The notes beneath the pieces were generated by a model, which saw nothing but the letters and a program-made list of their open reading frames with translations, did no database searches and had not been told where the DNA came from. A stretch of DNA of 62,872 bases, filler included, from Dugesia japonica (taxonomy: Eukaryota), in the NCBI GenBank assembly GCA_001938525.1. It is 6 parts of 6 records of this genome, joined end to end, with 100 filler letters (N's around TTAATTAATTAA, not from the genome) between each part and the next. Parts side by side here need not be neighbours in the genome. Positions count along the whole stretch, not along the records: positions 11,478 to 20,955 come from MQRL01529081.1; 5 more parts are not named here. One strand, written 5' to 3'. The translations under genes were made by a program, and so were the position numbers. Positions 1-38,809 of this stretch are shown piece after piece. Within the stretch, counting starts at the first letter, position 1. Each line of letters starts with the position of its first letter.

Positions 1-1405
1 TAAATATAAATGATTACAATAATTGCAATATTAATATTCAGTTAACTCGATTTCTATTGAATGAAATTATTAAAAATTAATTACTTCCTCATATCCCTCT
101 TCTTAAGAAACTTTCTAATACCTATTTCTCCTATCATATCTGGTGTCACTATTTCAGCAACTAAGAAAGTAATCTCTTTGCAAACTTCATCAATTATCAC
201 TCCAGTTGTGACTTTCCCAACAATTTCAAGTGTATTATCATTTGCACATCGCAATCTTTCATCACTCATTTCTAAATTTCCTTCTCGTAATTTATTAAAA
301 CAAATCAAACTTATCAGGTAAATTCGAGCCCCTGTATCTCATAAACATTCTACTTTATTTCCTTGAATTGAGACTGTAACACTTGGTCTGCTTTGCAATT
401 TATGGTACGAAATATTTGTTTTATTTTCTGCTTCAACTGTTCCAATTCATTCTACTTTTCTCTCATCCGCAAAATTTTCCCTCTTTAAGAATCTTTATAC
501 TCTTTCTGAAACTTTTTCGATATCATCCAACTTTTCGACCCCTTCAGGATAATTACTCACTTCATTTAACAATTGATGGCTCCAAACAACTCCTCTTCTG
601 ATGGAGCCTTTCTTTTTGGGTACTGACTTTCAGAATCACTTTCATATACTTCCTCATATTCATCGTTTGTAATTACATCTTTATTTTCAATGTCATGTAC
701 TCGATTATATCAGTTTCTTGATCTTTATGCAGTCATAAATATTTTACTTGTTCTTTTCATTTTTAAATTTGTTTAGCACTACTCTGCCCTATTTCCAGCA
801 TTACCACATCGTTTACACCTCATTTCTTGACATAACCTTCTAATATGTCCAACCTTTCCAAAACCAAAACATTTTGTTGGTTTTTTATTTGGACAATCTC
901 GACTTATATGTCCTGTTTTATGACAAGTCCAACACTCGACCACTTTTTTGTTTGGACAATTTGCTTTAACCATCATTCGATATTTTGTTTTCCCTTTTAT
1001 TGCTCAACGTGTCTATTCACTGTATGATTTACAGGTTTCTGATAATTTCGACTTGTAATTCTCGCATAAACGTGATCTCTGTTTTTCTCNACTTGATCTA
1101 CTAACGTCATTGTTTATTCAATTTCTTCTATATTCTTTCGTTTCCGCAAAGTCACTTCAACTTTTTGTTATCTGAACAATATACTAGCATTTTTGCTATC
1201 ACTGCCATCATGTTAGGTAAATCTTCAATTGGTAATTCATTTTCCAAATAACAACTAATATTTTTAGACATCATTTGTTTTACTANNNNNNNNNNNNNNN
1301 NNNNNNNNNNNNNNNNNNNNNNNNNNNNNNNNNNNATCAATATTAATATTCAGTTAATTCGATTTCTATTGGATGAAATTATTAAGTAATAATTATTTCC
1401 TCATA
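1..1405 (-). mobile_element. Internally deleted Ty3/Gypsy LTR element (copy 1): 5' LTR 1211-1405, gag zinc knuckles, protease, integrase tail, PPT, start of 3' LTR (<=1-93)
   Basis: CCHC knuckles (CWTCHKTGHISRDC) in ORF 779-976; protease-like ORF 81-308 fused directly to the integrase C-terminus RKFLKKRDM; purine tract at 94-104 next to the LTR; LTR sequence shared with 5692-5877 and 6263-6454. Confidence 0.88.
1199..1210 (-). other. Degenerate primer-binding site (tRNA-Leu-like)
   Basis: TGATGGCAGTGA immediately follows the LTR end ...CCTAACA; 2 mismatches from TGGTGGCAGTGG. Confidence 0.4.
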
Positions 1406-3243: not shown

Positions 3244-3499
3244 GAATAAACAAATAATGATGGACATAGTTTTGTTTTGTGAATAAATCTTTTATGGAAA
3301 CGAGTTTTGATATTAATTATCCGATAAGTGTTTTAATTTCATCTAACAGTTATCATTATTGTTTTGTAAATTACTTGAATTCATTATTATCAGGAATACC
3401 GGAAAGTAATCATGTAAAGTCAAAAATTTATAAAACAGCTATTGTATTAATACAAATTACACATTCCTTAAGATAAGTCCATTCTTGAATAAATTACCA

Positions 3500-3730
3500 T
3501 CTTTTGAGACAAAGAATGTCGTTAAGACAGAATAATATCATCCATATTTTCAATATTGTGTTCCTAAAACTATGTTCAACTGAACAGAATGGATAATAAT
3601 CTGTTGGTGATCTTACTAGGGGAATTTTGTAGGATTTGGTAAAACTTTCCAGTCCAGTTGCCGGATTTTCTCTTGAGTCCACATTGCTGAATGAGGTTTG
3701 GCCATATCAAATTACCCTGTTCGATTTTAC
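3500..3730 (-). mobile_element. mariner transposase remnant
   Basis: AKPHSAMWTQEKIRQLDWKVLPNP...SPTDYY.F.SVEHSFRN matches the mariner ARPH...WEVLPHPPYSPDLAPSDYHLF region. Confidence 0.7.
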
Positions 3731-5691
3731 AAAAGCTCTCAAATTTAATTTTAATTCCTTATGTCATGGGTCCAATTGCTCAAAATTAAATCATTTTTAA
3801 ATATTTAAATTTGTATTATAAAATAATTTATAAATAGATAAATTATCATTTTCATTATTTATAAAAATAACTAAATATGTATTGATTTTTTTTTGGTAAT
3901 TTTGTTAATATACTTAAAATTTTCATATTTCGGTTGGTCAATAAAATATATTTTTTAATGTATTTTTAATTATTAAAATTTTAGATAACATATAAGATAT
4001 AACATTTTAAAAAGAATAGACTATAAAATATTGTTAATGGAATGTTTTTTACTGTATTTTTAAATTTGACATTAAATAAATTTTAAATAAAATAAAAGAA
4101 AATATATTTATATTTATAGTTTTGTTTTTGAGAATTAATTTTCTATGAAATTCAGTTTTAATATTAATGATCCGATGAGTACTCCAAACTCATCTAACAA
4201 TTGTATTTTCAACAAAGATTGTCACATGAAACTTAAAATCAAATAAAATTTAGAGTGATTTAATTAAATAAAAAAACAAATCAAAAAAATTATAAGATTT
4301 TTTTCAAAAATTAAAATTTTAAAAGTTCTTCAAATAATTTGATTAATCGTTTTATTCTGTGCAAAAACTATTCGTTTTTTGAAAAAAAATGTGGTTAATG
4401 CAATCAATATTTAATTTTAAGAATATTGTCAATCTTTTTAATTAATATGACATACCAACAAGTCTAAAAAATAGTCAAGTCAAAATAGACAAAAAGAATT
4501 TTCATTTATGAATAAACTTTTTAATTTGAAGAACCGTCATGAAATATGACAGTGAAAATGTTCTTTTTACAAATTATCTCATTGAAATATATATTTGAAA
4601 CTTCAAAAACTAAAGAATAATTATTAGACTTAACTATTGATCGTATTTGGAGATTAAATTAAATTGAAATTATAATTTTAGACTTTTTTCTTTTTCAGGA
4701 ATTCTCTTTGAAGACGACACTAGTCGAAAATTCGAGTAACTACCAAAAAAAGAAATAAAATAAATTAACGATAATTAATTACATAATAATTAAAAGTGCA
4801 GTAATAAAAATAATTATTACTTTGGTGAAAATTTTCTTTTTTACCATATAAATATGAAATAAATTTGATTTTCTGATTAAAATTAAAATTCATTTTTATT
4901 ATATTTTTATTTTTTTATAATGTTTTCAACATTTTTATAAACAAAAATTTAATTAATAATTTCAATTAATTAAAATGAATTATTTTGAAGTTATTTAATT
5001 TTGTATTAATCAATTTATTTTTATTTTAAATTTTAAAATTTTCAAATAATTTCTATTTCAATATTTTTATTTATATTTCCAAATTTTTCTATTAATAAAT
5101 GAGTTGATATATTTTATTAGAAAGATTCTCGCTGTTGTGGATTACGCAAATTATATTGACAATTATAATTATATCCTTAATTATATTTGTAATTGTGGAG
5201 AAAAAATTTAGAAGAAATAAATTAAAAGTTTGTTTTAGTTAATTTTAATATTGATTTAATAATCATTATAATAACTATTTTTTTGTATAGATTTATTCAA
5301 ATATAAATATTAAAATAAATAAAAAATTATTGCATGATATCATTGACTAGGGTCCATTTTTATCTTAATCTGCTTCATTTACTACATTTCCGTCTTATAT
5401 ATTTAGTGCATGTTTGTATTTTTATAGTGTGTTAGTGTATTTATATATGTTTGTATATTCAGTGTATGTAGTTTTTTAATGAATGCTGTTTTAATGCTGT
5501 GTCTTTAATACATGCTAGTTTAGTGTCGACTAATTGGCTAAATTTGCAATTATTTTTGTCGAAATAATACCTTATGAAAGAAATAANNNNNNNNNNNNNN
5601 NNNNNNNNNNNNNNNNNNNNNNNNNNNNNNNNNNNNNNNNNNNNNNATGCGCTTTTATAATTGCTTAACTCTTTGTTTAAATATAATAAAC

Positions 5692-8600
5692 TGTTAGGTA
5701 AATCTTCAATTGGTAATTCATTTTCAAAACCACAATTGCTTTTACGCATAACTTATTTCTATGCACACAGCTATCTCACTCATATTATCATATAATAATA
5801 GAATTATTAAAATATTAATATACAATCAAATCGCTTTCTATTGGCTAAAATTATTAATTAATAATTATTTCCTTAAATCCTTCTTCTTAAGAAACTTTCT
5901 ATGTTTTCCCAGATTTCTATCTAATTGCTGTCGATTTTCTTACTGTACTGCATACCATCTTTCGTGATTTTCTCAATTATTGGATAAGGACCTTCGAATC
6001 TGTCCTGGCTTTTATTTCTTTTATTTATACCTTGATGAGTACAAAATCGCCCACTTTAAATTCTCTTTTAGTAGTCACTTCTGAAATTCTTTCCTTATTT
6101 CTCTCTGAAATGTCTGACTCGTACCACTTTTCTATAATAATTTTCTTTCCAAAAACCATCTCAGCTAAACTCTTTCTAGTTGTCTTCTACTTTGTTGAAT
6201 TCATCGTAAATTCGATTTCGGGTCAAAAATCTACCAAATCTGTTGTCTTTCTCTTTTGAAGTTGTTAGATAAATCTTCAATTGTTAATTCATTTTGCAAA
6301 TCAGAATTCATATTGTTAGACATTTTTTATGTTACTACTATGAACTATACTTAATTAAAGAAATGATTATTGAATAGTTTCTTAAAAATTTTTATCCAGA
6401 ATTAACTCAATTTCTATTGGCTCAAAATTATTAAATAATAATTATTTTTTCATATCCCCCTTCTTAAGAAACTTTCTAAGTATTTCCACATTTCTTTCTA
6501 ATCGCTGTACATTTTCTCCTTGTACTGCATACCGCCTTTCATGAATTTTCTCAATTATTAGATAGGGTCCTTCCAATCTGTCTTGGCTTTTATTTCTTGT
6601 TTCAACCTTGATGAGTACCATATCGGCCACTTTGAATTCTCTTTTAGTAATCAGGTCTGAAGTATTTTCTTTAGCTCTTTCTGAAACGTCTGACTCATAC
6701 CACTTTTCTCTGCTAATTTTCTTTCCAAATAAAATCTCAGCCTGGCTCTTTCCAGTCGTCTTCTGTTTTGTTGCGTTCATTGTAAATGCTATTTCCAGTA
6801 AAAGATTTGCCCAATCTGTTGACTTTCCTTCCTGAAGTGTTGCATCAATCAAATCTCGAATTGTCCTGAACTGTCGGTCAATTTGTCCGTTTGCATTATG
6901 ATGATAGGGACTCGAAAAGCAAAGTTTAATATCTAGCTTCTGTGCCAACTCTCTCATAANNNNNNNNNNNNNNNNNNNNNNNNNNNNNNNNNNNNNNNNN
7001 NNNNNNNNNCTTGTCTAGGCAATGGTATAAGAACCATATATTTACTGTACTGGTCGATTATTCCAAGAATGTATTTTTTACGTTCACTTGTTTCCCCCAT
7101 GGCCTCACATATATCTGCGAATATCATTTCAAATAAATTGGCAGCTTCTAAACTTTTTATCTTCTCTTTAGTTGCTTTTGTCACTACTTTGGTCTTCTGT
7201 CAAATTTCACAACTTCGAACAATCTTCTGTATTTGGCTGCAAAATTTTTTGCCATATATTTTTTTCTCATATATTCGTACTATTTCTATACGGTTTTACA
7301 TTGATTGGTTCACCATTTGTGATTATTTTGTGTCCTGTCAGATGTGTNNNNNNNNNNNNNNNNNNNNNNNNNNNNNNNNNNNNNNNNNNNNNTTCAATAA
7401 TTTTCAATAACCGTTGATCCTCTTTAATCTTCAAGATATTTAAAGCTCTTCTCAATCGCTCTCCTATTTTAATTTGTCTTCTGAATTTTGCGTTAATATT
7501 ACAAATGTAATTTTTGAATTTTTCATCTGTTTTGCAATCGACCTTTCGCATAAGCTGGTATCCAAATATCTTCTGTATAGCTATTCCTCCTATCAGATCT
7601 GGTGTTAATCTATCAGCAACTAAGAAAGTAATCTCTTTGCAAACTTCATCAATTATCACTCCGGTTCTAACTTTCCCAATAATTTCAAGCGTACTATTAT
7701 TTGCACAACGCAATCTTTCATCACTCATTTCTAAATTTCCTTCTCGTAATTTATTAAAACAAATCAAACTCATCACATTAATTCAAACCCCTGTATCTAA
7801 TAGACATTCTACTTTTTTTCCTTGAATTGATACCGTAACACTTGGTCTGCTTTGCAATTTATGGTACGAAATATTTGTTTTCTTTTCTGCTTCAACTGTT
7901 CCAATTCATTCTACTTTTCTCTCATCCGCAAACTTTTCCATCTTTAAGAACCTGTTTACTTTTTAGTAACTTTTTCTATATCATATCATTTATCGACCCC
8001 TTAAACTTCATTTAACAATGGATGGCTCCAACCAACTCCTCTACTGGTGGAGCCCTGGCTTTTGGGTACTGCCTTTTGGAATCACTTTCATATGCTTCCT
8101 CATATCCATCGTATGTACTGACATCTTCATCTTCAATCGCATGTACTCGATTATATCGGTTTCTTGATCGGTTTCTATGCAGTCATAAATATTTTACTTG
8201 TTCTTTTCATTTTTAAATTTATGTACCACTCCTCTGCTCTATGTCCACTATTACCACATCATTTACACCTCACTTCTTGATATAACCTTCTAATATAACC
8301 TACCTTTCTAAAACCAAAACATTTTGTTGGTTTTTTGTTTANNNNNNNNNNNNNNNNNNNNNNNNNNNNNNNNNNNNNNNNNNNNNNNNNNNNNNNNNNN
8401 NNNNNNNNNNNNNNNNNACATAACCAACACTCAATATTTCGTCAATAATTGGTTTTTCCTTTCTTTGCTCCACGTGTCTATTCACTGTATAATTTACAGG
8501 TTTCTGATAATTTCGATTAGTAACTCTCGCGTAACTTCTAACTGCATCAACTCGATCTCAGTTTTTCTCTACTTGATCTACTAACGTCATCGTTTCTTCT

Positions 8601-9870
8601 ATTTCTTCTATATTTCTCTCGTTTCCGCGAAGTCACTTCTTTAACTTTTTTGTTATCTGAACAATATACTAGCATATTTGAAACCATTTTTTCTTCAGTA
8701 AAATCTTTGATAGTAAATAATCTTGTTACTAAATCTTTTACATTTCTAAAATAAACTTGAATCTCTTCATTTAAACGTCTGTAGTTAATCAAATTTTGAA
8801 AATCTTTGATAACATCTTTCTCTTTCTCAAATCCCATACGTAAACGATCCTGAAAACCTTCAACTTTTTTNNNNNNNNNNNNNNNNNNNNNNNNNNNNNN
8901 NNNNNNNNNNNNNNNNNNNNNNNNNNNNNNNNNNNNNNNNNNNNNNNNNNNNNNNNNNNNNNNNNNNNNNNNNNNNNNNNNNNNNNNNNNNNNNNNNNNN
9001 NNNNNNNNNNNNNNNNNNNNNNNNNNNNNNNNNNNNNNNNNNNNNNNNNNNNNNNNNNNNNNNNNNNNNNNNNNNNNNNNNNNNNNNNNNNNNNNNNNNN
9101 NNNNNNNNNACATTTTTTATTTTACTACTACAAACTATACTTAATAAGAGAAATGAATATTGAGTAGTATTTTAAAAATCTTTATCCAGAATTAACTCAA
9201 TTTCAATTTGCTCAAAATTTTTAAATAATAATTATTTCCTCATAGAAGTGGTGCATTAATTAAATTTCGAATTATCCTGAACTGTCTCTCAATTGTCCGT
9301 TTGCATTGTGATGTTAAGATCTCGAATATCAAAGTTTAATATCTAGCTTCTGTGCAAACTCTCTCATAACTCTGGATTCAAAGGGTTTCCCACAATCTTG
9401 TCTTATCTCAATCGGGCATCTAAATCTTAATATCCACTTTTCAAAAACAGCTTTTCCTATTGTTTCATCATCTTGTCTAAGCAATGCTTTAAAAACCAGA
9501 TATTTACTGTACTGGTCTATTATTTTAAGAATACATTTTTTTCGTCCACTTGTTTCTATCATTGGCTCACATATATCTGCGAATATCACTTCAAATAAAT
9601 TGGTAGCTTCTAAACTATTTGTCTTCTTTTTAGTTGCTTTTGTCACTACTTTGGTCTTCTGACAAATTTCACAACTTCGAACAATCTTCTGTATTTGGCT
9701 GCACAAATTCTTTGCCATATATTTCTTTCTCGTATATTCGTACATCTTCTCAACTTCTGCATGACATAATAATTGGTGTATTTCTTATATTACTTCATGA
9801 ATTTTGTCATCCATCATTTTAATTTTCTTGATTACATTATTTCTTCAGAAATCTTTGATTGATCCTTTTT
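5692..9870 (-). mobile_element. Ty3/Gypsy copy 2 (3' LTR 5692-5877 plus integrase), split by insertion of copy 3
   Basis: Integrase C-terminal part at 5880-6262 and N-terminal part at 9245-9870 (ORF 9329-9745: CEICQK...IFADI...IIDQYSKY...QDCGKPFES) are collinear across the insertion. Confidence 0.85.
6263..9244 (-). mobile_element. Ty3/Gypsy copy 3 nested in copy 2: both LTRs, gag, protease and integrase present; most of RT/RNase H deleted
   Basis: 3' LTR 6263-6454; 5' LTR ends at 9244; 5-bp TSD GAAGT at 6258-6262 and 9245-9249; integrase ORFs 6442-7184; protease 7417-7850; RT start joins the integrase at ~7290. Confidence 0.92.
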
Positions 9871-11477: not shown

Positions 11478-13816
11478 AGACGTTGAAAAAAGTAGAAGGT
11501 TTTCAGGCTCGTTTACGTATGGCATTTGAGAAAGAGAAAGATGTTATCAAAGATTTTCATTATTTGATTAACTATAAGCGTGGAAATGAAGAGGTTCAAG
11601 TTTATTTTAAAAATGTAAAAGATTTAGTAGAAAGATTATTTACAATTAAAGATTTTGCTAAGAAAAAATGGTTGCAAAGATGATAGTGTATTGTTCAGAT
11701 AACAAAAAAGTTGAAGAAGAAGTGACTTTGTGGAAACGAGAGAATATAGACGAAATTGAAGAAACGATGACTTTAGTAGATCGATTTGAGAAAAACAGAG
11801 ATCGAATTGATGCAGTTAGAAGTTCCGCGAGAGTTACAAATCGAAATTATCAGAAACCTGTAAATCATAACATGAATAGACATGTAGAGCAAAGAAAGGA
11901 NNNNNNNNNNNNNNNNNNNNNNNNNNNNNNNNNNNNNNNNNNNNNNNNNNNNNNNNNNNNNNNNNNNNNNNAGTTGTCATAAAACAGGACATATAAATCG
12001 AGATTGTCCAAACAAAAAACCAACAAAATGTTTTGGTTGTGGAAATGTTAGTCACATTAGAAGGTTATGTCGAGAAGTGAGGTGTAAACGATGTGGTAAT
12101 GGTGGACATAGTGCAGAAGAGTGCTACATAAATTTGAAAGCGAAAAGAACAAGTGAGAAATTTATGACTGCAGAAATATCAAGAAACGGATATAATCGAG
12201 TACATGCGATTGAAGATGAAGATGTCAGTACAAACGAAGGATATGAGGAAGTGTATGAAAGTGATTCCGAAAGGCAGTACCCAATAGGCAGGGCTCCACT
12301 AGTAGAGAAGTTGGTTAGAGCCATACATTGTTAAATGAAGTGAGTAATTATCCTCAAGTGGTCGAAAAGTCGGATGATATAGGAAATGTTACAGAAAAAG
12401 TATAAATATTCGTAAAGAGAGAATGTTTTGTGGATGAAAGAAAAGTAAAATGGGTTGGAACAGTTGAACCAGAACAGAAAACAAATATTTCGTACCATTA
12501 ATTGCAAGGTATACCAAGTGTTGTGGTATCAATTCAAGGAAATAAAGTTAAATTTTTATTAGATACTGAATTAGATACTAGAATTTAACGTGATGAGTTT
12601 GAGTTGTTTTAATAAATTAGTAGAAGGAAATTTAGAAATAATTGATGAAAGATTGCGTTGTGCAAATAATAGTACAGTTGAAATTGTTGGGAAAGTTAGA
12701 ACCGTAGTGATAATTGATGAAGTTTGCAAAGAGATTACTTTCGTAGTTGCTGAAAGAGTGATACTAGATCTGATAGGAGCAAAAGATATGCAGAAAAACT
12801 TTGGATACCAGCTTATCCATAGCAAAACGAATGAAAAAGTCAAAAATTACATTTGTAATATTGAAGCGAAATTCGGAAGACAAATTAAAAAAGGAGAGCG
12901 TTTGAGAAGAGCCTTATATATTTTGAAGATTAAAGATGATTGACGGCTATTTAAAATAATTGAAAGTGATGAAGATTCTTTTATGGCAGATAAATGGTAT
13001 GTAGGATGCATGCATTTGACAAGACACAAAATAATCACAAGTGATGAACCAATCAATGTAAAACCGTAAAGACAACCAATGAACCTAGAATCTAAAATTG
13101 AAGAAGCTATCCAAAACCTTTTTGAGAATAATATTATCCGAAAATGCAAATCTCCATGGAATACCATATTGATCTGTGTTCGGAGAAAGGAAAGGAAGGA
13201 CATAAGAATATGCTTGGAATTTAGAAAATTGAATGCTATAACGAAAGACAAGCCTTTTCGATGCCTAATGTCGATGAAATGCTGGACATGTTAGATGGAG
13301 CCAAATATTTCAGTTCAATCGATTAAGGAAATGCATACTATCAGGTAGAGCTTGAAGAAGAATCTCAAGAAAATACGGAGTTTTCAACGAAACATGGACA
13401 ATATTGTTTTAATAGAATGCCATTTGGCATCGCACCGGAACCAGGGCTATTTCAAGAGATGATGGCAAAAGTGGTAGGTGGAATNCATCGCACCGGAACC
13501 AGGGCTATTTCAAGAAATGATGGCAAAAGTGGTAGGTAGAATCAATGGAACCATGGTTTATCTTGATGACATTCTGATATTTACGAACAATAAAGGTCAA
13601 CACTATAAAGTCATTGAAAGAGTATTATTGGAAATAATGAAGGCTAGTTTAAGAATTAATCCAGAAAAGTGTGAGTTTCTTCAAAGCGAAATCAAGTTTC
13701 TTAGACACATAATTAGCAAGGATGGTGTTAGAACTGATTCGTTTAAAATAGAAGCAATAAGAACATTTTGCAGGCCTAACTGTGTGAAGAAGTTACGAAG
13801 TTTCTTGGGAAATTAG
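11478..13816 (+). mobile_element. Ty3/Gypsy copy 4: gag, zinc knuckles, protease and RT (pseudogenised, 3'-truncated)
   Basis: Same gag/protease family as copies 1-3; RT motifs SPWN..I.V, R.CLEFRKLN, RMPFG, YLDDILIF, LRSFLG. Confidence 0.92.
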
Positions 13817-13891
13817 AATGGACAGATAAAATAAACGATACTAAAAATATTTCTGTCTTAATCTTGATAAAGTTTTTTTTGCAGATAGATG

Positions 13892-14790
13892 TTATTTTAA
13901 TTGCCCACCGTTATACTGCATCATTACTGCTTTTCTAAGTATTTTGGGAACCATGACTACGTTCAAAGTTTCCTGATATTTGACAAGTCCATCCTCCAAT
14001 TTGAACTTTCCTTGGTTTTTAGACAAAAACATTTGAAATTCAGCTGGTATTATTTTAGTCTGTAATACTTGTTTGATCTGATTGACCTCTTCATCTTCGA
14101 ATTGTGCTTGAATTACTTCTGATTGATCGTTAACTTGTTTTAAAATAGCGAATATAGTTCCTTTAAGTCTCTCTTCTTTTAAATCTTCTGGTTCCTCGTC
14201 TTTTTCTATTCGAGACAACGCATCCGCGTTTGAATTCTCTTTACACTTTCAGTAGATTATCTCGATATCGTATGGTTGTAATTTAAGTGCTCATCTAATT
14301 ATTCTTGATAAGTCGCTCTTATGCTTCATTAACCATTGTAATGGTTTATAATCAGTAAATATAACAATTTTTCTACCCCACAGATAATGCTGATACTTAG
14401 CAATAGCAAATATTACTGCTAATGTTTTCAATTCAACAAATCCATAATTTTTCTCGTGAGGTTGCAATCCTCTTCTTGCGTATGCTATAGCATATTAAGT
14501 TTTATTCTCATCTAATTGTCTTAACACTGCACCAATGCCTTTATTGCTTGCATCGGTCATCACTATAAATTGTTTTTCAAAATCGGGAAATCTCAAAATT
14601 GGTGCAGATGTCAACAGCTTTTTAAGCTCCTTGAAAGTTTTCTGTTTCTCTGGTCCCAAAATAAATGTTACTCCTTGCTTTTCTAATTGAGTTAATGGTT
14701 AGGCTAAAGATGAAAAATATCCTGTCATGCCTAAAAATTCTTTAATTTGTTTCGGGGGTTTTAATGCTGGAAGTTTTGAACTTTGGTGAT
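13892..14790 (-). pseudogene. Gypsy-type pol fragment: RT thumb, RNase H and linker toward integrase
   Basis: Manual translation: KQIKEFLGMTGY...LLTSAPILRFPDFEKQFIVMTDASNKGIGAVL...EKNY..ELK.LAVIFAI..YLWGRKIVIFTDYKPL...NADALSR. Confidence 0.9.
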
Positions 14791-15423
14791 CTTGATAGTT
14801 GGTTTATGAGCTTAACTGCTTACCATGCAACTCGATGATATGAATCCCAACATATTTTCGCTTTGAGTATCAGGGTAGGCCTTTAATTTAATGCTATAAA
14901 TACTACTCTCTACATCTTGACTTGATAAACTCCATTGATCTTTTTTCCAGTTCTTAAATTCTTCAGCTAATTTATTTTGAGTGAAGTTTAAAGGTTATAA
15001 TGTGACCAGTTCGTTTTTTCTAATATCATACGTACCAGATTTTGTGATACTGGTGTTTTCTTTGCATAATCTAGAATTCTTTCGATATCCCAATTATCAA
15101 TAATTTTTCTTAATTTATCCAATTCCCAAGTTGGGTACACTGGTGGTGGTAGAACAGAACTTTTAGTTGGTGCGCTTGCATGTAATAGTAGATTTTTTAT
15201 AGTACTAATTGGTGAATTCTATGGTCCTCGACGTGCATATCTTATACGCCCATGTAATTTTGTTGGAATGCCCAATTGTTTCTTTTTCTTATCAATAAGC
15301 ATAGTAATTTTGGCGCTCTTAGGCTTGCTTCATACTCTTGGAATTCCATCATCATCAAAACCTCCTTTAATTTTTAATTCAATATTCTCATCAGCATCAT
15401 CGTTTTCATCACTATCTGAGTGT

Positions 15424-17035
15424 TTAAGTCGCACCATTGTATGCTTCACAGTTCGATGTTTCATTTTTAATTTTTTTAATCTCTTCATGATAATGCTTAA
15501 ATAATAGAAATTTGGCACAAATTGGAGAAAAACCAACAAGTAACTGGCATGTCCATCCACCGACCTTGAATATACTATAGGTTGACAATAATTGTGTAAA
15601 TACCAATTTTGCCAAGACACAAATAACATATATACCAGCTAAACCTGATATAAATACTCCAAACGCACTGAATTTTCCCCAAATTCTCTTTGCTACATTC
15701 TTGGCAGCCTCTTTAAAATGTTCTGGCACGAACAATAAGTTATAATTAAGATGGATCTTATTTCGTTGATATACTGTTCTGATTATTTCTGATATACCCC
15801 TTTCTCTCGTTTGTAGAAACCACATCATTTTTCTAGTTTGCTCATAAAACTTTTGCTGTATAAATTCCTGATTTGGCTAATTCGTCCATAGTTTTAAATT
15901 CCATTCTGCTTGTCAAAGAGTTTATATCTAAAATTTATACTTGTTTTTGTTGGTTATTTCCTATCAGGCAAGGAAATTCAATGCTTGTTAATTTCATATA
16001 GTGGTGACATTGACGAATTACATACTGCTTCTTGTGGTTTCACATTTTTCTTTAGAAACATATGGATCACTGGACTCATGAATCTCAGTTTCCTTTCGTA
16101 AACAACTGATAACTATACTGTACACTGATTAAAGTTTGCTAATGACACTTCTGCTGGTGCGCATTGATAGCTATATATCGCCTCTCCCATGATTCTTCCG
16201 AATAATCATTTCTCCATTAACATTATAACGATAAGATCTAGATTCACTATCAATATCGCTAATCAATTTTTGATTATTTCTGTACTCAATTTATCCTCAT
16301 TCATGACGATCTCATGATACATTTACTCCATTTGAATAACAAACTATGATAGGCGTAATCAACCTTGTTATTTAAATAGTTTATTATTTTTATATCTTGG
16401 GCATTCAATTGTGTAGATTTAGGGATATTCATTTTTCCCAAATACAAGCCTTTATATTTTGTTTCATACACAAGATTGGAACATTTCATTGTGAAACCTT
16501 TCTTGATAAATCGAATTGCATACTTGGGGTTGGTTGATACTAATACAATTAGAGTATTCTCTTCTCCAATTCCCTCTTTTAGTATGCTGTTGACCATGCT
16601 TCCTACTTGCTTTTATTTAAATTTTTTACTCTTTGATTTTCCATTAATCTGGATCCCTTTTCTTCTGTTTTCTGTCAAGTTCCATTTATTTGTGTGAAAG
16701 ATAGCTTTTTTAATAATATCAATACACAAAAATCACGTTTTTCATCATATAGAAGTGTAGTGAACTCCGTTCGACAGGTAGAAAACTTTGAATTGCAATT
16801 CGGATTTCCAACCATCTTTCCTGTTTCCACTTCGAATATTCCTTCATATTCTCGCAATTCAACTGTATAATCCTCTAAATCCACTACTCGATTTACCAAA
16901 TTATTCTGCCTGGTTTTTGTTTGACCAGTACAATNNNNNNNNNNNNNNNNNNNNNNNNNNNNNNNNNNNNNNNNNNNCAGTATCTTTCCTACTTCTGCTG
17001 TTAACGTCACTTCGCTGTTGACTTTTAATTTTTCT
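15424..17035 (-). pseudogene. Chuvirus-type (class III, gB-like) envelope glycoprotein, N-terminally deleted
   Basis: C.....ETKYKGLYL; YLNNKVDYAYH; GEAIYSYQCAPAEV....QC...L.V.....FMSPV....CNS.MSPLYEI; C-terminal IWGKFSAFGVFISGLAGIYVICVLAKLVF...GW. The order and spacing of these motifs match chuvirus-G-like proteins as I recall them. Confidence 0.8.
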
Positions 17036-18160
17036 GTTCAAAATGCGATCTGTTTTTGGTAGCGTTGACTCATCTATTTCATTTTCTAAATCAATTTTAT
17101 TGATTATATTTTCTAATACTTTAGCTCTAATTTCTCTAGCAACCGTTTCATTCTCTGGTTCAACATTAAATTTATTTTTAGGTCTGCCTCTCTTTTCAAT
17201 CTTTGGTTGATCTGTCTCCCTCAGAGCTCAAGATGTTGATGCTTTTGCATTTATTCTTGAATTTTGAACTGGACAGGGATCTAATTCTTCTTTCACAAAT
17301 ATTTTTCGTGCTACATTTAGTACATTATGTATTACATTCAAATCCATGTGAGGCTCATACTCCTCATTATTATTTTCAACTACTGTGACTGAATTTCGCT
17401 GAATAAACTCCGCTATAACTTCTGGAAACATCAACATTGTCCAGTGATAATCAGCTCCTTCTACTTTCAATACTGATACTATAGTCGTCTGTGAAAGCAA
17501 ACAACCAACATCTACTAAATACTCGACATCATCAACTTGTTTTCCCCAAATCACTATCAAACAAGTGCTTGGAAATCTAATTCCAATATCCTTTCTCCAT
17601 TTTAACACCTTTTGGTAACACGAATATCTTTTGATTTCAGGTATCTCCTGATTTGGTTTTCTTATTTCTACTAAGAAATGACTCTGCTTTTTTCGGTCTT
17701 GTCTAATTGCTTCACAATTTTTCCGTATCAACATTCAGATTTCGTTTTGGTAACTACTTGGCGTACCAGCCAGAGGTAGTAATAATGGTACTATTTCCTT
17801 TAATATATCCGTTAGAATGTTCAAAGACAATGTCCAACTCAAAATATCTTTAATATTTTCATTGTTTCTTGGATTGGATTGGATTTCTCTTTCCAACCAT
17901 TATGGAATAGCCTACGTTTCATGAAGCTGGTCTAATTCCGTATGTTCTTTAGCAAATACACTATCTGGGCTAATAGTGGCTACCTCCGCCACTTTCTCAT
18001 TAGCCTGCAATTCTGTTTTCACATTTAGCAGTATGCCGCATAACAGAATCATTTTTTCTCTATCTAATATTTCATTGAACAAATATATTTCAAATTCTCT
18101 GCGTTTCACTCTCTTTAAATGTGTTGTTAATCCAAACGGATTTATATTTATTCAAAACTA
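17036..18160 (-). pseudogene. Unknown ORF upstream of the glycoprotein, probably part of the same retroelement polyprotein
   Basis: ORFs 17912-18109 and 17228-17734 link up through isolated stops and run to ~17036; same strand and similar base composition as G/pol; no family recognised. Confidence 0.5.
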
Positions 18161-18874
18161 ACAAAAAATACCTTTTTAATTTGACTGCTAACTTAGCAAA
18201 ATTTAGCTTTTAAACTGCTTATTAGCTCAACAGCTATTTTAGGTTTAAAATTTGAAGTCTGATTGAACTGATTTTGCAATCAGTAAATATACTTTTCTCA
18301 ATATTGAAATTACAGAATTAATAAATTACTGCATAATTTTTTATGCTAATATTANTAATTTTTCTAGAAAAGAATAAATTAATATTTCTGTCCATTATAT
18401 TGCGTTCCTAATTTTAGGAAATTAAAATATGAAATACAATAATTTTAAATAATTCAAAACTAATTGTTACTAATTTTAGTAATTTATAAATTTAACCTTT
18501 ATTTTAATACAAATATCTTTATTTATTTAAACAAATTTTTAATAAATTTGTTAAATTGTTAGGCTTTTGGATNNNNNNNNNNNNNNNNNNNNNNNNNNNN
18601 NNNNNNNNNNNNNNNNNNNNNNNNNNNNNNNNNNNNNNNNNNNNNNNNNNNNNNNNNNNNNNNNNNNNNNNNNNNNNNNNNNNNNNNNNNNNNNNNNNNN
18701 NNNNNNNNNNNNNNNNNNNNNNNNNNNNNNNNNNNNNNNNNNNNNNNNNNNNNNNNNNNNNNNNNNNNNNNNNNNNNNNNNNNNNNNNNNNNNNNNNNNN
18801 NNNNNNNNNNNNNNNNTTTAATGATCCAATAAAGCAAAGGATATTTGATACAACATTGTTCGTTATTTACTAGA

Positions 18875-19926
18875 TCACTCGTCCAACTCAATCACCTCGC
18901 TAGTTTTCTCCTTCGGCATATCTGATATTGAGTTTGATACCCGTGTCAATGTACGCACCGTTGCGATCAGCATGGTTTCTCTGTCGGCGTAGGATTTTAT
19001 TATGTCNNNNNNNNNNNGACATGTCTGAGCCAGTGCTAGTTCTCGCTCTTTTAGTAGGCCCACCTTTCCTCGGAGTTGAGTATTCTTGTGTTGTAAATCG
19101 ATGATATCACCCCTTAGCTTTTTCTGCAGAGAAATCCACTTAGCTTGGATGTCGATCTTTGATCCTTCCGTGAGCTTTTTCACTTCCGTCACTTTAAATA
19201 CGAAATAACTTGTAATCAATTTATTAAAAAAATTTTTAATAGTAAATAAAACATTCATGGTATCATTCCACCAGATCATTATAAATCGAAATCATTAGCA
19301 TTTAATATGAAATTTATCTTTAGTTGAAAACAAATCTTTAACGAATCTATATTAGGGATAACACACGAATCAGTTGATGGTTACACTAATTTCATCTGCT
19401 TCGTCTAAAGGCACGAGCACTTGCTGAAGTACAGACTCTATCTTACAGGCTAATCTTTCTGAAAGTTTGCTATATTCTTCCGCTTCGCGTTGTGTCGTTC
19501 TCATGGACTGAATGACCGTCTGCTGCTGCTTGGCGAGTTCTGTGGTTCGGACTTACAATTATATTAGTTCTTTCTCACGCTCCTGTTGCCATCTGGTAAT
19601 CTCTGTCACTTGCAGTTGATGTTGACTTTCTTGCTGCTCAACGCGTGTCTGCAGAGCATTAATCCGCTTTAGTTGTTCAGCGAACTGATGTCGTTGTCAC
19701 AATATTTCCTCTCCCATCTCAGAGATTTCGTCCTCCTTGATTCGCAGCTGTGTCTGAGTGATCCACCAGGGTTCGACGTCGGTTCCCTCAGTAGTAACCG
19801 AATCCCACATCGGTGGCATATTGTTACATGGTGTTGTCTCGAATGCATATCCGGCCGGTGCNNNNNNNNNNNNNNNNNNNNNNNNNNNNNNNNNNNNNNN
19901 NNNNNNNNNNNNNNNNNNNNNNGCAT
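18875..19926 (-). pseudogene. Two tandem coiled-coil ORF remnants (~19926-19370 and ~19200-18875)
   Basis: Heptad Q/E/L-rich translation (QFAEQLKRINALQTRVEQQESQHQLQ...; LQKKLRGDIIDLQHKNTQLRGKVGLLKE); stops of CAA>TAA type; higher GC than the flanks. Confidence 0.5.
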
Positions 19927-21055
19927 GTCACTTCCTCCTATACGAGTATTTCCTATTCTAATACATCAAAATATATTTATTCAATTTATTTTAATTTTAA
20001 ATGAAAATGAATGTTACCATGAGCTCGGAACGATCAACAATCACTCGTCATTACCGATGAGATTGGGCTCTCGAATTCCAATAATAATTCATAATCAATT
20101 TAATTCATATACTGTAACTGTTTAATCACATTTGGATTTATATTATTTCTGGAGATACCCATTTTCCTCCCAATGACGAATGATCCATAGGCCAGCCCGG
20201 AAAATTCTCCAATTTTATTTGAATAAATCTGTAAAACAAATAAAGTCGTTTTCTAAAGTAATAATATTTTTATAAACATTAGTATTCAGTAAAATTTATA
20301 CAATCAAAAACATATAATAGGAAGTTAGGTCGGATTCAACCACCCCACTTTGAATCTAGACACTCGACTATCTCTCATCTCGTAATCATTATCATTAATA
20401 TTATTTCTCACACATCGTTATCATCTTTTACAATTATCATCTTCCCTTGTCACCCTTTTATAAATCGATGTCATCATATTCGTCATCTTTCATAAATTAT
20501 TATCATATTTCATAATCATNNNNNNNNNNNNNNNNNNNNNNNNNNNNNNNNNNNNNNNNNNNNNNNNNNNNNNNNNNNNNNNNNNNNNNNNNNNNNNNNN
20601 NNNNNNNNNNNNNNNNNNNNNNNNNNNNNNNNNNNNNNNNNNNNNNNNNNNNNNNNNNNNNNNNNNNNNNNNNNNNNNNNNNNNNNNNNNNNNNNNNNNN
20701 NNNNNNNNNNNNNNNNNNNNNNNNNNNNNNNNNNNNNNNNNNNNNNNNNNNNNNNNNNNNNNNNNNNNNNNNNNNNNNNNNNNNNNNNNNNNNNNNNNNN
20801 NNNNNNNNNNNNNNNNNNNNNNNNNNNNATCAATATCACCTTTCATTTTTCATAATCACTATCAATAATATCATCTCTCCGAAATTTGGTATCATCATTC
20901 ATAATTATCGTCTTTCATAATAACTATCATCTTTCTTATCATTATCTTATTTCATNNNNNNNNNNNNNNNNNNNNNNNNNNNNNNNNNNNNNNNNNNNNT
21001 TAATTAATTAANNNNNNNNNNNNNNNNNNNNNNNNNNNNNNNNNNNNNNNNNNNN

Positions 21056-21817: not shown

Positions 21818-22639
21818 GTAATTATATTTTAACTGTTCAATATAACTACTTAACATCGTAATTTATTCTATAGTTTATTATTTATATTGCACAATAATAG
21901 TTTTGTTTTTGATAATAATGTATTCAGAATGGTAAATGTAATGAAATAATTCGTATGATGATGAAAGATGTATCAAATTTGATGACTTCTAGAGTAATGA
22001 AAGACAGTTTATATGGTCAAATTTGAGATCTAAGTGTGCCTATATATTAACGTTTCGGTTCAGTCAGCTGAAAAATGTTTGAAAATTCATTCTCATTTGA
22101 TTGTGCAAATAACTGTTAATTAAATTATCATGATATTTAGTTGCTTGTTAAAGATCAAACTTTCTATGTAACAATAGTGTCATTTCCTACATCAATTTTG
22201 TATTAATTAAATCAATTCATTAATTTTAATTTATTTAATAAATTTCATTGAAAAGATTTTATTATTACTTGTTAATCAAATCTTTCCAATTTTTCATCAT
22301 TTGTTTTATCAATTATTTGTTTCAGATATTAATTAATTAATTTGGTTTGAATTAATTAACAGTTCAATTATTTATTTTATCTAAGCTATTATTTTTTATC
22401 AAATATAAAAGAACACATTTCGGATTTGATTTTTTCGCAAATTTGATATCATTTTTTTTTGAGAAACGTAAATCCTGAATTTATATGTAGTGAGAAAGCA
22501 GTAGGAATAAATACAGTTTACTAAACTCTTATTTCCTAAGATTGTGAGAATTCAGTAACATAGATGTAGACAGATATTTGCAAATCTCTCCGCGAAGAAC
22601 AAAGTGAATCTTTATGTAACAGTGTTGATAGTGTGTCTT

Positions 22640-23460
22640 ATTTAAATCAATAATATTCAAATATCTTGCACCAATCAAATTGTCTAGTATTTCCTCTACT
22701 TTGGTCATCGGAAATGCCTATCTTTCTGTGATTGCATTCAGGCTTTTAAAATCTAGACATAATCTAACTGTTTTCCTATATTTTTTCCATACACATATTA
22801 ACGGAGTGTTCCATTGCAAATTACACTTCAAAATAATGCCATTGTCAAACAAATTCTTGTTAGCTTCGTCGATCCTATTTTCTAAATGCATTGGTTGTCT
22901 CCATGGTTTCGTATTTATTGGTTCTTCATTTGTGATTATTTGATGTTCTGCCATTGTTTTTCTGCCAATATTTCAGTTGTCTACCATGAATATTCCTTTA
23001 TGAATCATTATAACTTTCTCTAAACTCTTGTTTAGCTAGTTAATCAATATTTTTATTGCTGTCTGTACTCTCTCTTTATCCGTTGTATTGCGTCCATACT
23101 TTACTTCTATATTAAAAAGATACCTTTATTATCCTCACATTTAGTCTGTTTAAGCAGTTAAAATACAAAATGTTTCTTTAATTCCATTTCTCTTATTAGG
23201 TCTGGATGTATCTGTTTCGACACAATGAATTGAATTGTTTTGCTTTTATTCTCGAATTCCACTTCTACCTTAATCGTATTTACTATTTTGAGTGAACCAT
23301 AATTGGCACATCTTAACTTGTCTTTTCTTTTTAATATATTGACTTTTCTCAATCTTTTCAAAGTTTTTGAACTCATAATATTAACTATTGCTTGTGTGTC
23401 TAACNNNNNNNNNNNNNNNNNNNNNNGTATTCCAACCGTTATACTTGGTTTATCTTGCAT
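22640..23460 (-). mobile_element. Ty3/Gypsy protease and RT N-terminus remnant (different subfamily)
   Basis: LDTQAIVNIMS protease motif; EHQIITNEEPI...WNTPLICV.KK...RLCLDFKSLNAIT. Confidence 0.85.
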
Positions 23461-25872: not shown

Positions 25873-26391
25873 TAGTCAAAATATTCTTCCCTTATGTTGG
25901 TCCAAATTTTAGTTACAAATGTAAATTTATTTCAATTTATTATGCTTACCTTTGATATTTATAGTTTCTTTGTTTATTCGTATTTTTTATCCTTTTTCGA
26001 TTCTTAAAATGGATTATGTATTTGAACAAAGAAATTACATTAAGTTTTGCGTGAAAAATAAAATTAATGCTATGAAGAGGCATAAAGTAATGTAAAAATC
26101 ATTTATTGATCAATCACTTTCAAGAAAATCTGTATTCTTCAACATCAATAATTGAAAACAATCTCAAAGAAATTAAAAGCAAAGTAATGGCAATGGTAAT
26201 TTGATAGCTTTCTGTACATGTTGACATATAAACAGATTCGGTATACGTAAGTAAGTGGAAGTTAATGTCTATCCGTATCGCTATTTTGATTCGTTGAAAT
26301 ATTCCAGCCTTAATTATTACGTGTGGTATTGTCACACGTGTGATTAAAAATTTAATTCACGACTCATAAGATAAACAACAGGAAGTGTGAA
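25873..26391 (-). repeat. Inverted near-identical copy of 28112-28696 (a third partial copy lies at ~25519-25581)
   Basis: Direct reverse-complement match; ORF 26120-26335 mirrors 28168-28458; this copy lacks ~65 bp present at ~28369-28433. Confidence 0.9.
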
Positions 26392-27049
26392 TTATCACAT
26401 CTTTGACTCCAATTTTCACACTTTTATGTAAACAATGTACTTCGTCACCTAAGGAGTGAATTTTCACAGTTTTTTTGACCTTAAAAATTACTTTTATTTT
26501 TAATCGTAGTTTAATGTAAACAATTGATGTTTTTTTTGTTTAGTGCGTGGCGCATTTAGCATTAATACATGAAATTATTAATATTAATATTATTATTTAT
26601 ATGTTTTTATAGGTAGGAATTTTCACAATTTTGGTACCAATATTCACATCTAAATGCAAATAATAATTTTTTTATTGACATGTAAATTTTCTCACTTTAT
26701 TTTTTATTAATTATAAAATGTTTTCATAGGTGTGAACTTTCACATTTTAATACATCTTAATTTTTTAAAAGTGAGAAATTTATTGGAATTATCTTTGATA
26801 TTGTTGATTTTTATTGAATTAATGAATATACATATTTTCTTTATCCGGTACAATCAAACTTATAATCTAAAATTAAACCAATAATATTTATTATATTATA
26901 AATTATATGCATATTACCTATTACAATCAATTCTAAATCATCCAACCAGCAATTTACCAGTTTCTTTGTTTAATATTAGTGGTGGTAAAATGGGGGGAAA
27001 GGGCTCACCCCGCCCCCTCCAACCCATTTGAATAAGGCATATCATAGAT

Positions 27050-28110
27050 CAGTGGTGCTCAAGGTGGGGCGTATGCCCCACCAAGGGCCAATTTCATTTT
27101 TTATGGGGGCAAAGGGATATTTTTTGTTTAAAGGGGTTAATTCAGAATTAGTTATTAACATTGAATTTTATTTCAAATTTACATGTAATATATTTTAATC
27201 ACAATGCAAAAGTCCATTTCTAACGAATCTATAAAATTTATAGTCTATGATTCAATGGCTAATCAATCTATGCTGTTGTGTTTAAATGCGTCAAATTACA
27301 TTTTGTGTCGATTTGCTGATAGTTTAAAATTGGTGGTATTCACTGGTTACTAGTGTAAATTAAAACCTGATTTGACATTCTAAGTATCTACAATAATTGC
27401 TTCACAACTCTAAGACAATGGTATATTTTATTAAATTTCCATGAGTATTTTTTAGGTTTATTTCATTCAGAAATGAACTTGATGTCTAACAGCGATATAA
27501 TTACTGCGAGGAAAAAAAATTTCTTCAATATTTAGAGGAATACTTAAAATGGGGCTTCATACCGGCCAACCATGATAATCGTTTACCTTTCTGCCTTTTA
27601 TGCCAGCAATGGTTGTCTAATGAATCAATGAAAAACAATCGTCTTCAGGTGCATTTAATGGCGAAACATAGTGTATATGTAGATTCAGATTTACATTATT
27701 TCAAGTCTTTAAAGGATAAGTTTGAAAAGCGATCAACAATAAAGTCTCTGTTAACTGCACAAACTGTTTCGATCAGTCGTACTATTGAAGCCAGCTATGA
27801 AATTTCACTACTCATTATTAAATCTGTGAAAAATCATACCATAGAGGAGGAATAACTTAAACCGGCAATATCTGCATATGTTAAAACAGTTCTGGAAAAA
27901 GATGGCAGAGATGTGAAAGCCATGCTACTTAGTTATGATACTGTCAGAAGAAGAATAGATGAAATGAATGATGACATTGAAACACAACTTGTTGAAAAAC
28001 TGAAATCAAGAAATTTCTCGCTACAGCTGGATGAATCAACTGTAATGGATAGTGAGGCCATATTGCTAACTTATGTAAGATATATTGATAAAAATGATTT
28101 TGCTGAGGAA
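27050..28110 (+). mobile_element. hAT Buster/Charlie-type element: left end and transposase N-terminus
   Basis: Starts CAGTGGTGCTCAAGG; EEYLKWGF...PFCLLCQQWLSNESMK..RL..HL..KH (BED finger); TVRRRIDEM..DIE.QL...FSLQLDEST. Confidence 0.88.
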
Positions 28111-28716
28111 CTTCACACTTCCTGTTGTTTATCTTATGAGGCGTGAATTAAATTTTTAATCATACGTGTGTCAATACCACACGTAATAATTAAGGCTGGA
28201 ATATTTCAACGAATCAAAATAGCGATACGGATAGACATTAACTTCCACACACTTATGTATACCGAATCTGTTTATATGTCAACATCTACAGAAAGCTATC
28301 AAATTACCATTGCCATTACTTTGCTTTTAATTTCTTTGAGATTGTCTTCAATTATTGATGTTGAAGTACGACCAGAACGATGTGCATCTACTATCGACTC
28401 ACAATATTCTCTGATGAGCTTATGTTTCTTGAATACAGATTTTCTTGAAAGTGATTGATCAATAAATTATTTCTACATTACTTTATGCCTCTTCATAGCA
28501 TTAATTTTATTTTTCACGCAAAACGTAATGTAATTTCTTTGTTCAAATACATAATCCATTTTAAGAATCGAAAAAGGATAAAAAAAATACGAATAAACAA
28601 AGAAACTATAAATATCAAAGGTAAGCATAATAAATTGAAATAAATTTACATTTGTAACTAAAATTTNGACCAACATAAGGGAAGAATATTTTGACTACCG
28701 CACGAGCTTATAATTA

Positions 28717-35139: not shown

Positions 35140-36434
35140 AACGTTCCCTCTCTGAAAAAGATGCTCCGTCATCTTTGGGTAAACGCGAAATAGGGACATG
35201 CAATATCGAGATACGGTGAAAAGACATTACTGGAACAGGGTTCATTAAAGATACATGCCGGGAACTTGGCTTCTGGATATATGGGGGATGGGGAAACCGA
35301 AGAACTTCGGGAAAAGATATCTATATCTCCTGCTTTGGAATGACGGGTAAGTATTCTGGCAGGCTGGTGTCTTCTAGCTCAGCTTTCATCCGCAATTGCC
35401 TGTAATCTTTTATTGTTTTTTTCTATTTCCATTCTTGTTATTGTAGCGTGCGTATACATATAACTTAACGGGCCAAGTGATTTCGGGATAGATACGGTAT
35501 TTATGGTGATATACAGCGACCAAATTTTTGTATGTTCAGGTAAAAATTGGTATTGGAAATGTGCTGGGTTTTCATGATCGATTTCAATCAGATCTGTGGT
35601 TGTAATATATCCACTTACGCGAAACGGGGTACTATCTGGCGGGTTATTGAGAAATTGCATCTTTTGTTTCTCATTTAAAAATGTTCGATGGAATACGGCG
35701 GATTGGTACATAAAGGCAGTATTTTGTAGGATAGTATGATGCACTAAAAGTTTGAATTTTTCAGCATCTATGGTTTTTTGAGTGAACGTTTTCTCATATT
35801 GTAGTTTATCTAGTATCTTAATGTGGAACGTAAAATATGTTCTCTCAGTCTTCAATATTTTAATTAACTGGTGCTTCTGTTTTTTCGAAAACTGACCATA
35901 ACTAACTGCTCGAATATCGTTGTTAATTTGTTTCATTGACAAGGAGTCATGATGGATGAAGATGTCTTGAAATTTGCTGACCGGGTCCCAACAGTCAGGG
36001 ATATCTCTTTGCTCAATAAAAGGAGTGAGGTGGGCAAAACTCGTACTATTGTTATATGGCATTTTTATCATGAGGGTTAGGGAGACAATTTGTACAATAG
36101 AAGGTTTCTTAACGTAACAGAAGGTTACACGGCATAATTTAGTGTCATAGATTCTCTGGGATCGACACGAAGGACACGGTACATTATTGGAGTTGACTAT
36201 ATTAAACTATTCTGTTATTCAAGCAAAGCAAAAAAAGTGCCCACATAGTGCTATACGAGGTAAGATAGGTTGATCATAACATAGAGGGCATATAGGTTTA
36301 TCGGTGATAAGCAACGTAACTAGTGTAATATCTGACCAACAATAAGGGTTTATTAAGTTCCGGTATTTCTCATATAAAGTTATGCGTGCTGACTGTAATA
36401 AAAATAATTGTTGTGCTTAATAACTGGGATTCAT
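35120..36434 (-). pseudogene. Intronless RNF10/Mag2-like C3HC4 RING E3 ubiquitin ligase carried as retroelement cargo
   Basis: In frame upstream of ORF 35379-36071: W.DITLV......PICPLCYDQPILPRIALCGHFFCFA*ITE*F......PCPSCR (RING 36165-36290; the stops are single-base changes from Cys and Tyr codons), then L.LM.K; later FMYQSAVFHRTFLN and P.RVSGYI...QYQFLPEHT parallel the RNF10 YFYQAEDGQHMFLH and PEKISATV...RYLSHLP blocks; a frameshifted tail runs to 35120. Confidence 0.8.
35144..35153 (-). other. Polypurine tract
   Basis: AGAGAGGGAA just upstream of the LTR start. Confidence 0.7.
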
Positions 36435-36520
36435 TCTAAAANAAATACAATATTAATGATAGGGTTAGAGAGTGATACTATAATAACAATAGATAAATAC
36501 AAATAATTTCTTTGTTTATG

Positions 36521-38672: not shown

Positions 38673-38809
38673 TTCTAAAATAATGCAATAATTAATTTCT
38701 GATTTTAAGGACTGACTATTCCTATATACTGCTACATCTACTAGTAGCTCATTATATAAATATATATATAATATAGATTATTTTCTTTTTTGAATTTTTT
38801 GCAGGGTGT

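Follow-up and report, generated by a model that had tools for sequence, protein, structure and literature searches.

A decayed Ty3/Gypsy copy from Dugesia japonica with a gB-like glycoprotein ahead of pol, and relatives that keep this order in one open frame

Anakin elements of the BEL/Pao group reportedly carry a chuvirus glycoprotein (G) downstream of pol. For the errantiviruses of Nematoda, Bryozoa and Platyhelminthes, PMC13524379 describes an envelope protein of the herpes simplex virus glycoprotein B type (HSV/gB ENV) in the order GAG-ENV-POL, reports six families in Schmidtea mediterranea (Smed) with 1-215 copies, notes the likeness to chuvirus G and states that the GAG-ENV-POL elements are not monophyletic; it lists no tRNA type for the Smed elements, and neither the idea of a single polyprotein nor any ubiquitin domain, late domain, fibronectin or Burro element comes up in its main text. 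In Ty3/Gypsy metaviruses of nematodes, ENV also stands before POL (Sacco et al. 2022, as cited in PMC13524379). Burro elements, giant long terminal repeat (LTR) retrotransposons of planarians of >30 kb, are described in PMC6431247 as encoding one polyprotein, into which env is set in frame after gag and ahead of pol, in the order gag-Ubl/SUMO-like-Bcl-2-env-PR-RT-RH-IN (Ubl, ubiquitin-like; PR, protease; RT, reverse transcriptase; RH, RNase H; IN, integrase), within an open reading frame (ORF) of 4,873 aa that also holds MATH, BIR and other domains, and their env is likened there to gypsy Env/F and to mononegavirus glycoproteins. We analysed a window of 62,872 nt (the whole stretch, made of 6 parts of the Dugesia japonica assembly GCA_001938525.1, in which adjacent parts need not be neighbours in the genome), and the element under study lies on the minus strand of the contig at positions 11478-20955 (MQRL01529081.1). 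It is very probably a decayed Ty3/Gypsy copy with a gB-like G before pol, likely once a single gag-Ubl-G-protease-RT-RNaseH-integrase frame; the copy has lost two internal stretches and its 3' end is cut.

The order of the parts was read from six-frame translation and from Pfam on single-frame pieces; G was missed by Pfam on whole frames and was detected once short pieces were scanned. Three collinear pieces of PF24664, the Monjiviricetes (chuvirus-type) glycoprotein family, were found in three frames of the minus strand (profile positions 246-322, E 0.014; 329-451, E 1.2e-11; 482-619, E 1.6e-15), and a G profile from eight relatives spans 17055-15442 in five collinear pieces, with a hydrophobic, predicted transmembrane (TM) segment at ~15663-15595. 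The polymerase part gave Pfam matches to RNase H (PF17917, E 3.5e-32) and to the start of Integrase_H2C2 (E 0.0047), the RT profile matches the element at 14773-14630 only, and the protease profile finds nothing in 13830-20955, while two further Gypsy copies of the window score E 4e-11 and 1e-12 with it. These results agree with the original prediction, made from the sequence alone, of the minus-strand order (an unknown ORF, G with its TM, a linker, the RT thumb and RNase H) and of the loss of the protease and the RT core. The features used to recognise errantiviruses, namely the order RT thumb-RH-IN, PF24664 and an ENV upstream of POL, are all found in the window. The apparent continuity of G with pol that had been proposed holds in the relatives and not in this copy, in which 1,406 aligned codons fall into 9 frame segments with 21 stops. 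A protease remnant considered near 14870 was rejected, as no protease profile matches there, and a run of 43 N at 16935-16977 was ruled out as a hidden large gap, the G homology passing through it in frame. Word-based protein searches with two pieces of G returned none among 55 and 300 candidates, and a viral-contig scan for G none among 9 stretches.

A phmmer search with the G frame gave 46 matches, 20 of which, mostly the longer ones, were scanned with Pfam together with their cluster mates. G comes first in all 13 records that have both PF24664 and a pol domain (P0004, P0007, P0008, P0009, P0011, P0013, P0018, P0050, P0052, P0054, P0055, P0104 and P0105): G, PR, RT, RH and IN lie in one protein in P0011 (2,855 aa), P0013 (2,627 aa), P0050 (3,003 aa) and P0052 (4,844 aa), and G is followed by the protease in P0004, P0007, P0008, P0009, P0018 and P0054. 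Six distinct relatives run from G to the integrase without a stop, including the nearest, P0055 (3,181 aa), which was also the best of 49 matches (43% identity) when the RNase H region alone was the query. Its layout, gag-Ubl-G-PR-RT-RH-IN, is also that of P0105 (3,735 aa), a cluster mate of the second RNase H match; gag precedes G in P0055, P0105, P0007 and P0018, and the best match of P0055 in the PDB is the Ty3 Gag-Pol (E 1e-110). P0104 belongs to the same cluster as P0055, and its DNA, on a contig of 11.9 kb (L001), holds a single uninterrupted frame of 3,181 codons. P0055 is collinear with the window at the Ubl region, in G (36-50% identical) and in RT-RH-IN (42% identical), and the gaps of this alignment define both deletions.

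In an RNase H/thumb tree of 54 rows, which left out matches with <150 aligned residues, the window falls in an 11-row clade (98/96), the other 10 rows being 7 proteins with G upstream, 2 pieces of such elements by cluster and 1 that starts at RT. A G tree of 42 rows, built on one frame piece (10 of the 51 G matches were dropped, the piece not being covered), places the window with P0055, P0106 and P0003 (99/100), and most stand-alone chuvirus-like G proteins fall apart from this group, in a more distant clade. The intact single-ORF relatives and the congruent trees thus bear out the enveloped Gypsy lineage with G before a protease-RT polyprotein that had been predicted, and the RNase H phylogeny proposed as its check sets the window within a G-first clade.

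The join between the linker and pol was located by two means. The alignment to P0055 starts at 14866 with BLOSUM62 and at 14779 with BLOSUM45, contigs of other copies still cover 14819, and the summed depth has its minimum, ~100, at 14834-14929. The junction therefore lies between ~14825 and 14935, with a best estimate of ~14870 that replaces the ~14790 given originally, and the deletion would have removed ~470-500 codons relative to P0055. Contigs and depth came from the DNA runs X1, X2 and X5, of three studies, in which contigs measuring 850, 915 and 915 nt run across the join (14669-15518/15583) with 0, 1 and 0 differences, respectively. These contigs have a depth of 6-11, against summed depths in the thousands over G and RNase H, which indicates that the family is multi-copy and the join particular to this copy or to a few. 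The 14870 join could also have arisen by recombination between two members of one G-first family instead of a deletion in one copy, and both the multi-copy state of the family and other joints among the contigs (14823-15065, 15573-17044, 15247-16804) are compatible with it; however, nothing requires it, a simple deletion yields the same sequence and the gene order is unaffected either way, so that we regard it as unlikely and keep the deletion.

Between G and this deletion, the linker comprises ~200 codons in two frames with 2 stops, much as first described (~200 residues with isolated stops and frameshifts). Contigs of divergent copies run from the tail of G into the linker (15132-15476 with 44 differences, 15171-15476, 15122-15435), and the linker hence belongs to the family. 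The frame of G ends at 15424 and another frame carries the linker, as might be the case if gag, env and pol stood in the same order as separate ORFs, expressed by frameshift, readthrough or splicing and without a polyprotein. The main text of PMC13524379 describes three ORFs, GAG-ENV-POL, without the words "polyprotein" or "fused", and two pairs, P0009/P0053 and P0008/P0049, are split on their contigs. Against separate ORFs, the six relatives mentioned above, P0055 among them, are single ORFs, P0052 and P0050, cluster mates of the split pairs, are unbroken, and the G tail of P0003 aligns into the linker frame of the window (E 7e-4, 1 kb database), as a frameshift by decay predicts; this alternative seems to us quite improbable, and an ancestral single frame is preferred. 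That the join is misassembled, or that it unites two tandem pol-then-G elements in a chimera, was put forward with the original prediction as the case that would refute it and could be suspected in a fragmented scaffold full of nested Gypsy pieces, env after pol being the usual order, but this retains almost no probability and is refuted as far as testable here, since the G and RNase H trees agree, so that both halves come from the same G-first lineage and a pol-then-G chimera is removed, since pol-then-G occurs in 0 of the 13 relatives with both parts, and since single contigs of three DNA studies contain the join, which argues for no misassembly.

The "unknown ORF" of the original prediction is present upstream of G. 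Its stop-free stretch was modelled (pLDDT 60.8 overall, ~70-80 in the core), and among the top 50 rows of VIA-align, with which all fold comparisons were made, nearly all are ubiquitin-like, the best being ISG15 (Z 7.4, root-mean-square deviation (rmsd) 2.4, 64 aligned). The Z is middling and the list of matches consistent, and on this model the ORF holds a ubiquitin-fold domain, at ~17650-17453 of the minus strand. P0055 aligns with the Ubl region of the window at 17938-17501 (E 5e-8), its own UBX match (E 3e-4) agrees with the ubiquitin fold, and the whole segment is collinear with P0055 465/521-665, P0050 230-378 and P0007 406-547.

The original prediction saw one deletion only and missed a second one, at ~17050. 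The G homology sets in without transition at 17052-17055, where the profile (660 positions) is already at 117; at this gap of the alignment, P0055 has 333 aa versus 150 codons in the window, and loose contig ends were found at 17050 in X1 and X5. Judged from the alignment, this deletion would have taken ~180 codons, corresponding to the signal peptide and the first ~100-115 residues of G, and also a Bcl-2-like segment, if the family had one. Pfam detected no Bcl-2, MATH, BIR or ankyrin domain in this copy, the deletion covering the Bcl-2 position, and no gag profile matches in 17900-20955. Without gag, signal peptide, protease, RT core and integrase core, this copy cannot perform the cycle proposed below.

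As the class III fold had been named as a check, the G of a relative, P0006, was modelled from a 31-row alignment (pLDDT 77.6). Out of 48,161 chains, the five that match it best are without exception herpesvirus gB, the first being HSV-1 gB (Z 10.2, rmsd 8.3, 433 aligned), and the model thus gives G a class III fold, demonstrated on this relative and not on the broken gene of the window.

The relatives extend beyond the integrase. After it, P0055, P0050, P0105, P0011, P0013, P0052 and P0057 have what is predicted to be a type I membrane protein, with a signal and an ectodomain followed by a Thr-rich stalk, a TM and a proline-rich tail, and in six of six distinct full-length relatives a signal-like segment, an ectodomain and a TM follow in the same ORF; 4 of these 6 have both hydrophobic segments above the threshold, and the other 2 have one, their second being visible in the alignment. 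Atlas likens the ectodomain to fibronectin type III (fn3) with a score of 0.82, which is under 0.9 and a lead only. Directly after the polyprotein, L001 has an ORF2 of 607 codons (L001:9958-11781) that is DEDD-exonuclease-like according to Atlas (RNase_T 0.89, again under 0.9 and a lead only), with catalytic residues that look degenerate by eye; Pfam and PDB sequence searches confirmed neither fn3 nor RNase_T. A DEDD exonuclease cargo is described from rotifer Gypsy elements in PMC5408684. Residues 238-371 of ORF2 match the window at 37992-37576 (26% over 144 aa, E 4.9e-5), within a "cargo cassette" on another contig in which a C3HC4 RING (E 3.3e-5) comes after the exonuclease-like frame. The order of the cassette is that of L001, and it probably represents a related element's 3' arm. 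Its suggested membership in the same large-element family is thereby supported through the ORF2 match, but not as the own arm of this copy: it lies upstream in window order and is therefore not the 3' end of this copy. A profile of the post-integrase membrane protein (7 relatives) has no significant match in the window, 38879-39436 included, so that for the membrane protein the link of the cassette is drawn from the layout and the ORF2 match only.

In the linker of the window, a PPxY overlaps a YPx3L at ~15146-15120. [quoted passage not shown] A search of the literature that did not extend to figures, Repbase or subscription papers found in print neither late-domain-like motifs, nor a second membrane protein after the integrase, nor an exonuclease-like ORF2 in such elements.

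In the relatives, G is preceded by a hydrophobic segment and closes with a single TM, and this suggests how the frame might work. Gag-Ubl would be made in the cytosol; an internal signal sequence would then send G into the endoplasmic reticulum, signal peptidase freeing G from Gag, and the single TM helix of G would stop the transfer, so that synthesis of protease, RT and integrase would go on in the cytosol, with these still attached to the tail of G. Pol would thus be packaged through Env rather than by a Gag-Pol frameshift and would stay bound until the protease releases it, ESCRT would be drawn in for budding by the YPxnL/PPxY/PTAP-like motifs of the linker, and fusion of the particle with a new cell would fall to G. 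A broader reading, possible though somewhat doubtful, would be that of two-spike retroviruses made from one polyprotein, with a gB-like fusogen before Pol, a fibronectin-III-like attachment protein after the integrase, Pol packaged via the fusogen tail with ESCRT late domains, and a DEDD-exonuclease-like (+ RING) accessory gene, the window then holding both arms, with the cassette as the 3' arm of a related copy.

Several points weigh against our interpretation. PF24664 is listed in only 1 of the 49 RNase H matches (P0055), stand-alone G matches without genomic context could include pol-then-G relatives, and the closest intact relative is only 36-50% identical, the intact layout being known from relatives and not from copies of this organism. 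This assembly may itself derive from one of the three DNA studies that contain the join. Alignments of the linker with the relatives are poor (shuffle p 0.017 to 0.76 over 6 comparisons) and its last ~85 codons match nothing; the late-domain patterns were picked after the motif of the window had been seen, and their likeness to ESCRT late domains is our assumption. Topology, cleavage, budding and fusion are predictions.

With regard to the ends of the element, both ends of the window copy are lost or unrecognised and no LTR pair was found on the L001 contig; the TGTTG..CAACA LTRs and the Phe primer-binding site originally proposed were found in neither. At L001:378-405, just before the ATG, stands a primer-binding-like site (CA, 2 nt, TGG), which we take, putatively, to resemble the 3' end of tRNA-Trp and not Phe. 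In the RNA runs X9/X8, the mean depth over the element is <2 (80% likeness; 25%/6% of the runs read), from which no evidence on expression is drawn.

Among the relatives, aspartic protease domains are multiplied: P0052 has 7 DTG-type motifs and P0007 has 4, and in P0011 and P0052 further copies follow the integrase. P0013 (HBK71150.1), a complete G-PR-RT-RH-IN retroelement of animal type, is filed as a protein of a Flavobacteriaceae metagenome-assembled genome and likely comes from a mis-binned eukaryotic contig. The P0003 gene model joins a piece of Smed_errantivirus_4-like ENV to a fragment of an ion-channel gene, likely an annotation artefact.

The window is AT-rich (~27% GC), gapped and dense in Gypsy fragments. 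The G element meets head-on an unrelated Gypsy of the plus strand, both being cut at ~13830-13844, and the summed depth of the latter is 1.5e5-4.8e5 versus 5e3-1e4 for the minus-strand element. A 58-nt tandem duplication in the RT of this plus-strand Gypsy (13428-13544) is skipped by many contigs, and an envelope-less CCHC-gag Gypsy family has three copies in the window (118-926, 7393-8870, 11486-12964), 86-93% alike, two of them on the minus strand. An RT fragment at 22625-23032 was left unassigned, being 25-31% identical to G-first relatives, to which the unrelated plus-strand element is at least as close. A coiled-coil frame upstream of the G element has a depth of 3,300-7,900 in X1, which is the level of the G element family, and no Pfam match below E 0.05; it is possibly a 5' accessory gene of the G element. 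Elsewhere, long inverted repeats with arms 97-99% complementary surround ~1.7 kb at 25873-28697, possibly a DNA transposon, and a DDE_1 (pogo/Tigger-type) transposase fragment (E 1.1e-19) lies on the minus strand at 54600-55322.

Table 1. Positions, along the whole window, of the parts of the G element and of the features discussed with it.
Feature	Positions	Strand	Basis or remark
Unrelated high-copy Gypsy (CCHC gag, protease, RT)	11480-13843	+	RVT_1, translation, depth
RT (palm end and thumb/connection); RNase H at 14584-14270; start of the integrase zinc finger at 13951-13844; in all 6 stops	13844-14866	-	PF17917, PF17919, PF17921
Internal deletion junction 2	14825-14935	-	Protease(s) and RT fingers/palm missing
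Predicted cytoplasmic linker from G to where the protease was deleted	14870-15462	-	Bridging contigs, relatives
Class III (HSV gB/chuvirus-type) fusion glycoprotein (predicted), with stops and frameshifts	15463-17052	-	PF24664; P0055 G
Internal deletion junction 1	17040-17060	-	Signal peptide and N-terminal G missing
Decayed segment between gag and G: helical region, ubiquitin-fold domain (modelled), low-complexity stretch; 4 stops	17055-18103	-	
Coiled-coil frame, two in-frame blocks	18870-19860	-	Translation; AT-rich spacer between the blocks, could be an intron
"Cargo cassette": Thr-rich stalk and TM, exonuclease-like ORF, acidic tail, C3HC4 RING ORF	35379-39436	-	Other contig

The novelty implied by the original prediction does not stand, since env-before-pol Gypsy elements with this type of glycoprotein are already described in PMC13524379 and PMC6431247; the layout is known, and the present finding adds one more family, through a dead copy, to a known group. 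With the HSV/gB errantiviruses of Platyhelminthes, as presented in the main text of PMC13524379, the element shares a Ty3/Gypsy pol and a gB-type ENV upstream of POL. Compared with the published domain I-II row of Smed_errantivirus_4, the G of the window has 40 of 73 and 24 of 41 residues identical, as counted by eye, and the top phmmer match, P0003, is by eye a near-identical piece of the ENV of that element; at ~55-60% identity, the decayed element of the window belongs to a sister family of Smed_errantivirus_4, and not to the same family. The nematode metaviruses, as cited in the same text, have ENV before POL as in the window but form a separate host clade. The Anakin elements (PMC7642597, PMC10084718) share the glycoprotein family, PF24664; in the window, G lies upstream of pol, and the relatives of its RNase H are Ty3/Gypsy and not BEL/Pao. 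The anatomy of the intact relatives, with a frame crossing the membrane repeatedly, Pol tethered to Env, a second surface protein and late-domain-like motifs, suggests how such elements assemble and spread between cells, and in this fuller form may matter to retroelement specialists. Compared by description only, the relatives, and by inference the window, resemble Burro in having env in frame between gag and pol; a Ubl precedes env in the window, Bcl-2 stands before G in P0006 (E 1e-3) and ankyrins occur in P0052 and P0057, whereas the nearest intact relative, unlike Burro, is compact (3,181 aa, on the 11.9-kb contig). This anatomy suggests that Burro and the GAG-ENV-POL errantiviruses, described in a main text that does not name Burro, can be tied into one lineage.

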